Positions 13,877 through 16,501 of a DNA stretch of 64,000 nt are shown here, piece by piece. The stretch lies in the NCBI RefSeq assembly GCF_003790525.1, contig NZ_CP033635.1; one strand, given 5' to 3'. Position 1 is the first letter of the stretch. Every line of letters starts with the position of its first letter. Source of the stretch: Escherichia coli. Its GTDB lineage: Bacteria; Pseudomonadota; Gammaproteobacteria; Enterobacterales; Enterobacteriaceae. A program made the position numbers and the translations under genes. Below the pieces are notes generated by a model, which did not search any database, was not told where the DNA came from, and saw only the letters and a program-made list of their open reading frames with translations.

Positions 13877-14027
13877 ATGATCCCCCATTAGAATTCGATG
13901 TAATTTTCAGTGTAGACCATAATTTTCTTAACTGAGGTTCATCGCGGCTTTATGGACTTTTCTGAAAGCGTTGTGAATGCGCAATCAGGTAAGGTAGGCC
14001 CGCGGTTGATAATAACGAGGATCAAAT

Positions 14028-14372
14028 ATGTATTTACGACCAGACGAGGTGGCGCGCGTACTTGAAAAAGTCGGTTTTACTGTCGATGTGGTAACCCAGA
14101 AAGCGTATGGTTACCGCCGTGGGGAAAATTATGTCTATGTTAATCGCGAAGCGCGAATGGGACGTACCGCCCTGGTGATTCATCCAACATTAAAAGAACG
14201 TAGTTCAACACTGGCTGAACCCGCTTCCGATATTAAAACTTGCGATCATTACCAGCAATTTCCGCTCTATTTAGCGGGTGAACGTCATGAGCATTACGGT
14301 ATCCCGCATGGCTTTAGTTCGCGTGTTGCGCTTGAACGTTATTTGAATGGTTTATTTGGCGAAGCCAGTTAA
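14028..14372 (+). CDS. ygaC: DUF2002 protein YgaC
   Basis: 114-aa [32 protein letters not shown]... Confidence 0.85.
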
Positions 14373-14408
14373 AGACGCGACTGGCGATGCCAGTCGCGAA
14401 AAGAAGGG

Positions 14409-14858
14409 TCAGGCTTTTACCTGCTGGTAACGGCTGACTTTAAACAGTCGGCGGCAATAATCGAGGAAGTAGCCATAAACCGCCCCCATCAACATCGAAA
14501 CAACGATGTTTGAACTGACTGCCGCCATAATCTGATGCCAGTCTGCGCCCACCACTAACAAGATCGCCACATACACCGGTGACTGGAACGTCACATAAGC
14601 CAGGATATCCGCCAGATTTTTTATCCAGCCCGACGGGCTAACTTTGCGTGCCGCGCGCATAAACAGATCGCGGTACATACCGTATGGCCATGCAATTAAG
14701 ATGTTCACCGGAATCGCTACCAATCTGGAATAAAAAGACTGTTCGAAGCTCATTCCGGAGAGGAAAACTTCAATACACATGTTCACGACAGAACAGTAAA
14801 CAACCATCGCGAACGTATCTGCAACTGCATGACGCAAGCGTGACTGCGGTGAGAACAT
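14409..14858 (-). CDS. alaE: L-alanine exporter AlaE (YgaW)
   Basis: 149-aa hydrophobic [24 protein letters not shown]... Confidence 0.85.
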
Positions 14859-15525
14859 GCTAATGCTCCTTAATAAAAGCGTAATGGGATGTTAATGGAG
14901 ATGAAAGCAGTGGATCTCATTGCCATCTGCATTTTCGCATAGCGTATATCGCTGGCTATGACTAATCAATTAGTGAAAAATTTTTATTTAATCTGTTTTT
15001 GTAGATAAAATATTCCGTAACAGCGCGTTTTTTGTACATTGTGGATTTTTACATGCCGATATGATTTATTTTTAATTAAATCAATTGGATATGTGTTTAC
15101 CTTTATTATCACTCATGAAGGTTTGGGGGTGAGGTAACGCTATAAGCGTAGAGAATTCGGTGTATGTCGTGACCGGGTCATTTTCAGCATTTTTTATGCC
15201 AGAAAATGTACATTGACAGCAGAAAGCACCAGTGAGGGGTGTTTCCATTTATTCGGTTAAATTGCATTTTTATTCATTTTTGTTTTGTCAGGCTTGCGGA
15301 ATTAGCGAGCAGAGAGCGCCGCTCTGCTCACAAATAACCGAAATTACTCATCAAAATGGCTAATATATAATCTTGAAATTATTCTGAGAGTTTCAGAAAA
15401 TAACAGCTGAAATAATCTCGCGCAGGACTGTAAATAGATTAAATTTTGTGGAAATATAATAAGTGATCGCTTACACTACGCGACGAAATACTTTTTTGTT
15501 TTGGCGTTAAAAGGTTTTCTTTATT

Positions 15526-15930
15526 ATGTCCGTAATGTTACAAAGTTTAAATAACATTCGCACCCTCCGTGCGATGGCTCGCGAATTCTCCATTGACGTT
15601 CTTGAAGAAATGCTCGAAAAATTCAGGGTTGTCACTAAAGAAAGACGTGAAGAAGAAGAACAGCAGCAGCGTGAACTGGCAGAGCGCCAGGAAAAAATTA
15701 GCACCTGGCTGGAGCTGATGAAAGCTGACGGAATTAACCCGGAAGAGTTATTGGGTAATAGCTCCGCGGCCGCCCCACGCGCTGGTAAAAAACGCCAGCC
15801 GCGTCCGGCGAAATATAAATTCACCGATGTTAACGGTGAAACTAAAACCTGGACCGGTCAGGGCCGTACACCGAAGCCAATCGCTCAGGCGCTGGCAGAA
15901 GGTAAATCTCTCGACGATTTCCTGATCTAA
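15526..15930 (+). CDS. stpA: H-NS paralogue StpA
   Basis: 134-aa [37 protein letters not shown]... Confidence 0.95.
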
Positions 15931-15976
15931 TTACTGAGGCCGGATGCCGCCGCTATGGCGCGTCCGGCGTCGCTTC

Positions 15977-16501
15977 TCAAGCTCGTTGGTTCCACGGCAT
16001 CTTATCTAACAACCTTGCCATCCCACAAAAACCGCTAATTCCTGCAAACAGTAACCCGGCACCAACAAAGCCGCTTAATAAGAAGAAACCGCTATTTACG
16101 GTATAACCCAGTATAACGCCGATTAATATTAAACCACCCGCAGCGATCTGCACCTGGCGCATTAACGGCAAGGGTTGAGATTTATTTACCGCTACTAGTA
16201 ATCCTGCTTTTTTCCAGCCATCAATCCCATCTTCGAGTAAAAAGATTTCTGCGGGGGCGGCAATCGCTGCTAATTTATCGGCGTTATTACTGGTGCGTTT
16301 ACCTGCCTGGCAGTGGAATATAATTTGCTCGCGACGTAATTTAGCCGGAAGACCTGACTGTTCCAGCACGGATAATGGAGCCAGATCTGCTTCAGGAATA
16401 TGTTCACGAAGATATTCATCAGCGTCACGAATATCGATTAACTTTGCGCCGCGTGCGATTAATTCTTGTGCATCATGCGGCGAAATGGTTGTCAAAGCCA
16501 T
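15977..16501 (-). CDS. ygaP: Membrane-anchored rhodanese (thiosulfate sulfurtransferase) YgaP
   Basis: 174-aa ORF with active-site Cys in ...[12 protein letters not shown]... and C-terminal transmembrane helices. Confidence 0.88.

Follow-up and report, generated by a model that had tools for sequence, protein, structure and literature searches.

Between the genes alaE and stpA of Escherichia coli lies a long stretch of AT-rich DNA, and the question that it raises is whether it is only a control region or whether an unannotated gene is hidden in it. In the window, by which we mean the whole 64,000-nucleotide stretch of E. coli DNA that was analysed, this gap extends from 14859 to 15525 (667 bp). 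It separates two divergent genes, alaE on the minus strand (14409-14858, start codon at 14856-14858) and stpA on the plus strand (15526-15930, ATG at 15526). The first-pass annotation had described about 670 bp of strongly AT-rich DNA with A/T tracts and without a convincing ORF between alaE and stpA, and this description was borne out, the GC content being 34.9% and the longest ORF 55 aa. It had also placed the region upstream of stpA, which is true, but since the genes diverge it is equally upstream of alaE.

The interval is 100% identical to that of E. coli SMS-3-5, where the PGAP annotation has no feature between the two genes. The equivalent gap of K-12 MG1655 measures 668 bp (2798496-2799163) and in RefSeq has no annotated feature inside. 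In both annotations the flanking genes are thus transcribed apart from a gene-free interval, which is the arrangement of a divergent promoter region. The K-12 gap is approximately 96% identical to that of SMS-3-5; the promoter modules of both genes are essentially identical, and in the core spacer about 9% of the positions differ.

The GC content of the gap compares with 49.4% for the window, where only 2.5% of all 667-bp windows are as low, and the density of runs of at least five A or T is 15.0 per kb, 3.6 times the 4.2 per kb of the window. This is DNA of the AT-rich and A/T-tract-rich type preferred by H-NS. The AT-richness is nevertheless uneven, because the conserved flanks and blocks have 15-31% GC and the core (15100-15342) has 42%, so that it is concentrated in the constrained parts. 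A second and larger AT-rich zone, with GC down to 0.29, is present in the window at 25000-30800. It contains an alpha-amylase-family gene, a tRNA-Ile, a ypjC-like pseudogene, a recombinase fragment and the end of ypjA, and looks like horizontally acquired DNA.

We consider it very probable that the gap is the shared control region of the divergent alaE and stpA genes, composed of an alaE module, a stpA module and a drifting spacer between them, on which H-NS silencing and Lrp bridging act. The alaE module (approximately 14859-15090) would hold a weak, activator-dependent sigma-70 promoter (TTGATT-17-TACGCT), and the stpA module (approximately 15441-15525 and, less sharply, as far back as about 15343) would hold the promoter TGGAAA-17-TACACT followed by a short unstructured leader. 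The approximately 240 bp between the modules appear to drift freely in sequence. The anatomy and the conservation pattern are established by the comparisons below, as is the absence of a hidden gene. The features of this region are:

14859..15525, no strand: whole divergent intergenic region, found as one copy in 5419 of the 5426 complete E. coli genomes
14859..14934, minus strand: predicted alaE 5' leader of about 76 nt, with the Shine-Dalgarno sequence AAGGAG at 14871->14866
14941..14969, minus strand: predicted alaE sigma-70 promoter, -35 TTGATT (14969->14964), 17-bp spacer, -10 TACGCT (14946->14941)
14969..15088, no strand: AT-rich conserved blocks ahead of alaE that may be sites of Lrp or H-NS or an UP element, namely the palindrome ATTAGTGAAAAATTTTTATTTAAT (14969-14992), TTTTTGTAGATAAAATATTCCGT (14996-15018) and AAATCAATTGG (15078-15088)
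15100..15342, no strand: core spacer of about 240 bp, 42% GC, indel-rich between genera
15343..15440, no strand: distal upstream region of stpA, of moderate conservation in Escherichia, with the palindrome AGAAAATAACAGCTGAAATAATCT at 15395-15418
15449..15477, plus strand: predicted stpA sigma-70 promoter, -35 TGGAAA (15449-15454), 17-bp spacer, -10 TACACT (15472-15477)
15484..15525, plus strand: predicted stpA 5' leader of about 42 nt, with the Shine-Dalgarno sequence AAAGG at 15510-15514

The comparison was made with 80 AlaE-encoding loci, one genome per species. The divergent alaE-stpA pair was found in 59 sequences besides the window, which come from Escherichia and some twelve further genera of enterobacteria, among them Salmonella, Citrobacter, Enterobacter, Klebsiella, Raoultella, Lelliottia and Leclercia. 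In these 59 sequences the gap measures 475-789 bp and has 31-43% GC throughout. In the MAFFT alignment two parts are conserved, the 240 bp next to alaE and the 85 bp next to stpA, and positions 15100-15440 are poorly conserved and indel-rich across genera.

Divergence from four other Escherichia species gave the same division. The four-fold degenerate sites of six neighbouring genes showed a divergence of 0.28-0.32, the block upstream of alaE (14939-15058) 0.13-0.15, and the stpA promoter and leader (15441-15525) 0.01-0.07, whereas the core spacer (15100-15342) reached 0.42-0.46. By this measure the core is unconstrained, evolving at or above the four-fold rate. The gap length stays at 661-669 bp across all seven Escherichia lineages despite the 42-46% divergence of the core, which may represent a spacing constraint or an alignment artefact.

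A further 19 of the fetched genomes, from Kosakonia, Silvania, Superficieibacter and others, carry alaE without an adjacent stpA. Every conserved block from about 15090 to 14939 is retained in these loci, and the blocks therefore serve alaE. Judged from this distribution, the half of the gap with the strongest conservation is that of alaE and not that of stpA.

Pairs of -35 and -10 elements were scored with a matrix adjusted to the AT content of the region, and for each gene a pair was found, as a motif, at a sensible distance from the start codon. The alaE candidate has the joint top score (9.3), tied with an unconserved plus-strand site at 15373-15401 which is destroyed in E. albertii and in the remaining Escherichia lineages. 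Its -35 keeps the TTG, and its -10 keeps T-12, A-11, C-8 and T-7, with 100% conservation over the 59 other genomes, and the candidate is also present in the genomes without stpA. From its position we infer that alaE transcription starts near 14934, 76 nt upstream of the start codon. The first-pass annotation had made its reading depend on a transcription start or a conserved structure other than the stpA promoter. The alaE promoter is a necessary second start and literally answers this demand, but it is not a hidden element. A standard promoter and terminator scan gave counts at shuffle level and missed both conserved promoters through its 9-of-12 threshold.

The alaE Shine-Dalgarno sequence is invariant across genera. 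The consensus fold of the alaE leader over 21 genomes contains one hairpin of five pairs between the Shine-Dalgarno sequence and the start (-2.8 kcal/mol); the five pairs are invariant, with no covariation or compensatory change among these genomes. In Citrobacter amalonaticus a GC-rich insertion of about 140 bp, aligned between window positions 14871 and 14872, separates the alaE Shine-Dalgarno sequence from the rest of the leader, and it is absent from the other genomes examined.

The stpA candidate ranks third in the matrix scan. In its TACACT the bases T-12, A-11 and T-7 are 100% conserved in the 59 genomes, and the middle bases of both -10 hexamers are variable (32-63% conserved); invariant outer and variable middle bases are the pattern expected of working -10 elements. 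Transcription of stpA would then start near 15484, 42 nt upstream of the start codon. A perfect TATAAT is located at 15455-15460, inside the spacer of this promoter, but its conservation per position is only 44-78%. Conservation thus favours TACACT over the perfect TATAAT next to it as the -10 that stpA had ancestrally, although TATAAT could be the -10 that E. coli actually uses for stpA.

Consensus folding of the stpA leader over 16 genomes predicted no pairs. With neither leader showing a conserved structure with covariation, a riboswitch or attenuator leader of alaE or stpA was rejected. Within Escherichia the stretch 15441-15525 diverges by 1-7%, against about 30% at the four-fold sites, which is more constraint than one would expect for a core promoter by itself. 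The distal upstream region (15343-15440) is identical to K-12, and its divergence of 25-37% from the other Escherichia species is close to that of the four-fold sites. It contains a second TATAAT (15366-15371) that is 31-81% conserved per position and is not conserved across genera.

The divergent alaE-stpA control region is already known and studied. In a genomic SELEX table (Shimada et al.; PMC3946193) an H-NS site and RpoD holoenzyme binding are both listed at the stpA-alaE spacer; the promoter-like strings printed there for RpoD map to 15048-15112, away from both predicted promoters. A published summary describes stpA as silenced by H-NS and Lrp-dependent in minimal medium (PMC4668568). 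The extended H-NS/StpA regulatory region of the first-pass annotation is partly supported by these data, the gap being a known regulatory region with H-NS in the SELEX table and H-NS silencing of stpA, but the proposal was incomplete, because the conserved half belongs to alaE, about 240 bp in the middle are unconstrained and Lrp is the best documented regulator at the locus.

Ziegler and Freddolino (mBio 2023; PMC10127797) observed a double Lrp ChIP peak in K-12, with one peak at stpA-alaE and the second inside ygaP. Removal of the ygaP site, over 1 kb distant from the promoter region that Lrp occupies, lowered the Lrp activation of stpA more than 5-fold, and atomic force microscopy showed leucine-sensitive Lrp bridging of the stpA-alaE/ygaP fragment (PMC10127797). 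This is the locus described here, with the 668-bp gap of K-12, and its difference from the window is in the core spacer. In the window ygaP extends from 15977 to 16501, and an Lrp peak in the half of the gap nearer to alaE would agree with the separation of over 1 kb. Neither alaE nor stpA is mentioned in the Kroner 2018 preprint, and papers that treat alaE in threonine uptake and in valine fermentation give no details of its promoter.

We propose that H-NS, and probably StpA too, would coat the AT-rich DNA and keep stpA silenced. Lrp bound in the gap would bridge to the ygaP site more than 1 kb away and thereby activate stpA in minimal medium, and leucine would dissolve the bridge. The invariant AT-rich blocks upstream of alaE, in which many positions are 95-100% conserved across genera, most likely carry Lrp sites through which alanine and leucine would control alaE; it is from their conservation and position that we infer this identity. 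Ihara et al. (J Biosci Bioeng 2017) reportedly obtained an Lrp footprint on the DNA upstream of alaE at about -161 to -83. If numbered from the start codon this footprint would presumably coincide with the most conserved blocks (14941-15019). The Lrp sites are not pinned by sequence, since a scan with the SELEX consensus gave only two matches, each with three mismatches, in the gap, and the pattern occurs at chance level across the window. No useful matches were obtained in the gap with the H-NS high-affinity motif.

Two groups of known systems can be compared with the gap. As in the H-NS-silenced regions of hns, proU and bgl, AT-rich and tract-rich DNA extends well past the core promoter, H-NS is listed in the SELEX table at the spacer and stpA is derepressed in the absence of H-NS; unlike in them, the most AT-rich and best-conserved blocks serve the neighbour alaE, and the middle has 42% GC and is unconserved. 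With the Lrp promoters that have upstream site arrays (ilvIH, dadAX, oppA) the gap shares conserved AT-rich palindromic blocks upstream of weak -35 and -10 elements, and an expression that responds to leucine and alanine. It differs from this class in having no good match to the SELEX consensus YAGHAWATTWTDCTR. We take the blocks upstream of alaE to resemble the Lrp sites of ilvIH.

The length of the gap had also been said to leave room for an unannotated small RNA or small protein. This suggestion did not survive, the Rfam, terminator, 3'-end, fold-conservation and ORF tests all being against it. The elements that came into consideration are:

15050..15149, plus strand: E. coli-only folding stretch with three hairpins, the sole strong outlier of the fold scan
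15081-15248, minus strand: 55-aa ORF, without start codon and with an internal stop in K-12, frameshifted in other Escherichia
15232-15363, plus strand: 43-aa ORF, interrupted by two stops in K-12
15307..15329: 8-bp GC-rich hairpin or palindrome, GAGCAGAG-N7-CTCTGCTC, without a U-run on either strand

The Rfam scan of 14000-16500, with E values up to 10, gave four chance-level matches, all far below the gathering scores. Two weak sites were obtained in the terminator scan against 0.7 expected, one of them inside stpA and the other at 15224-15244, where a stem with three G-C pairs is followed by a poor tail and the bases past the stem already differ in K-12. In the Term-seq and bicyclomycin supplements of Adams et al. 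2021 there is no 3' end on either strand of K-12 2798500-2799163, the listed ends jumping from 2798243, inside stpA, to 2799705 and beyond. Without an Rfam family, a terminator or mapped 3' end, or a conserved sequence or structure, a small RNA gene was rejected. NsrP, an Lrp-controlled small RNA, was also discarded as it is located in a pathogenicity island and is unrelated to the gap. The two ends that border the empty interval can be noted for themselves: 2798243 (window position about 15778) is an ORF-internal 3' end inside stpA, and 2799705, from the bicyclomycin (Rho-dependence) table, is downstream of alaE and antisense to ygaC.

An RNA made from the spacer of E. coli only is a different proposal, and one that the fold scan brings up. 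Such a plus-strand RNA, whether a small RNA or an alternative long leader of stpA, would start near 15083 from a TTTACA-17-TTTAAT site and include the hairpins at 15098-15149. The stretch 15050-15149 has a z of -4.2 in SMS-3-5 and -3.6 in K-12, no shuffle folds equally well, and the second hairpin depends on G-U pairs, which makes it specific for the plus strand. Moreover the RpoD SELEX table has a promoter-like sequence at 15048-15076, and the weak terminator-like site at 15224-15244 lies downstream. Nevertheless we regard this RNA as very unlikely. The homologous segments in E. albertii, E. whittamii and two other lineages have z values of 0 to -0.7, so that the structure is not conserved, and in a near relative the signal is weak (-2.0). 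The segment changes at least as fast as expected under neutrality, the terminator-like site is poor and its flank has changed in K-12, an Rfam match is absent, and the supplements of Adams et al. list no 3' end in the K-12 gap. In addition, the matrix scan puts the promoter-like site no higher than rank 17, and with 62 windows in the sliding fold scan a single outlier is less surprising. The fold is accordingly treated as not functional. It is less probable still that E. coli proper has recently gained a structured transcript of about 15083-15250 on the plus strand, either a newly arisen small RNA or an extended second leader of stpA, whose promoter would normally be kept silent by H-NS; owing to this silencing such a transcript would be missed in wild-type datasets from rich or minimal medium.

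That the gap encodes a small protein, for instance the 55-aa or the 43-aa ORF, is exceedingly improbable. There are nine ORFs of 20-55 aa inside the gap, but a stop, a frameshift or a lost start disrupts every one of them in K-12 or a further Escherichia lineage. A Shine-Dalgarno-like motif precedes only one ORF of 5-60 codons, a GTG ORF of 10 codons antisense to the alaE leader, and a small protein gene was rejected on the two grounds that none of the ORFs of 20 aa or more stays intact in K-12 and the sister species and that a ribosome-binding motif is confined to this one short ORF. Moreover the locus is absent from those parts of the small-ORF ribosome-profiling supplements and of the Enterobacteriaceae intergenic small-ORF survey supplements that a partial coordinate search covered. 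The variable core could also be seen as the decayed remnant of an inserted element or of a lost gene, which would account for its 42% GC against 15-31% in the conserved flanks, for the several inverted repeats within it and for gaps of 475-789 bp among genera with indels mostly in the middle. We give this origin little credence. The core has no intact or conserved reading frame, the gap length is steady within Escherichia, and in E. coli the core, likewise present in 5419 of 5426 complete genomes, is single copy (median one place per genome), most genomes being 90-95% identical to this allele. Plasmid and phage matches were spurious: the plasmid matches were mislabelled chromosomes, with no true plasmid relative among them, and the sole phage match was a 1.7-kb fragment that resembles host DNA. 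The hairpin at 15307-15329 is not conserved in E. albertii or in the remaining Escherichia lineages, and its z-scores are unremarkable outside SMS-3-5.

As a shared control region of alaE and stpA, the locus is a textbook-style example of H-NS silencing and of Lrp-mediated DNA bridging, and the present analysis adds little beyond a tidy annotation. In practical terms, the middle 240 bp can be used as free spacer in the design of reporters or deletions. Far from the gap, inside the coding sequence of dgcN (yfiN), the sequence CAGAATATTTTGCTG at 49978-49992 matches the Lrp SELEX consensus perfectly, and it is the only match with zero mismatches within the window.
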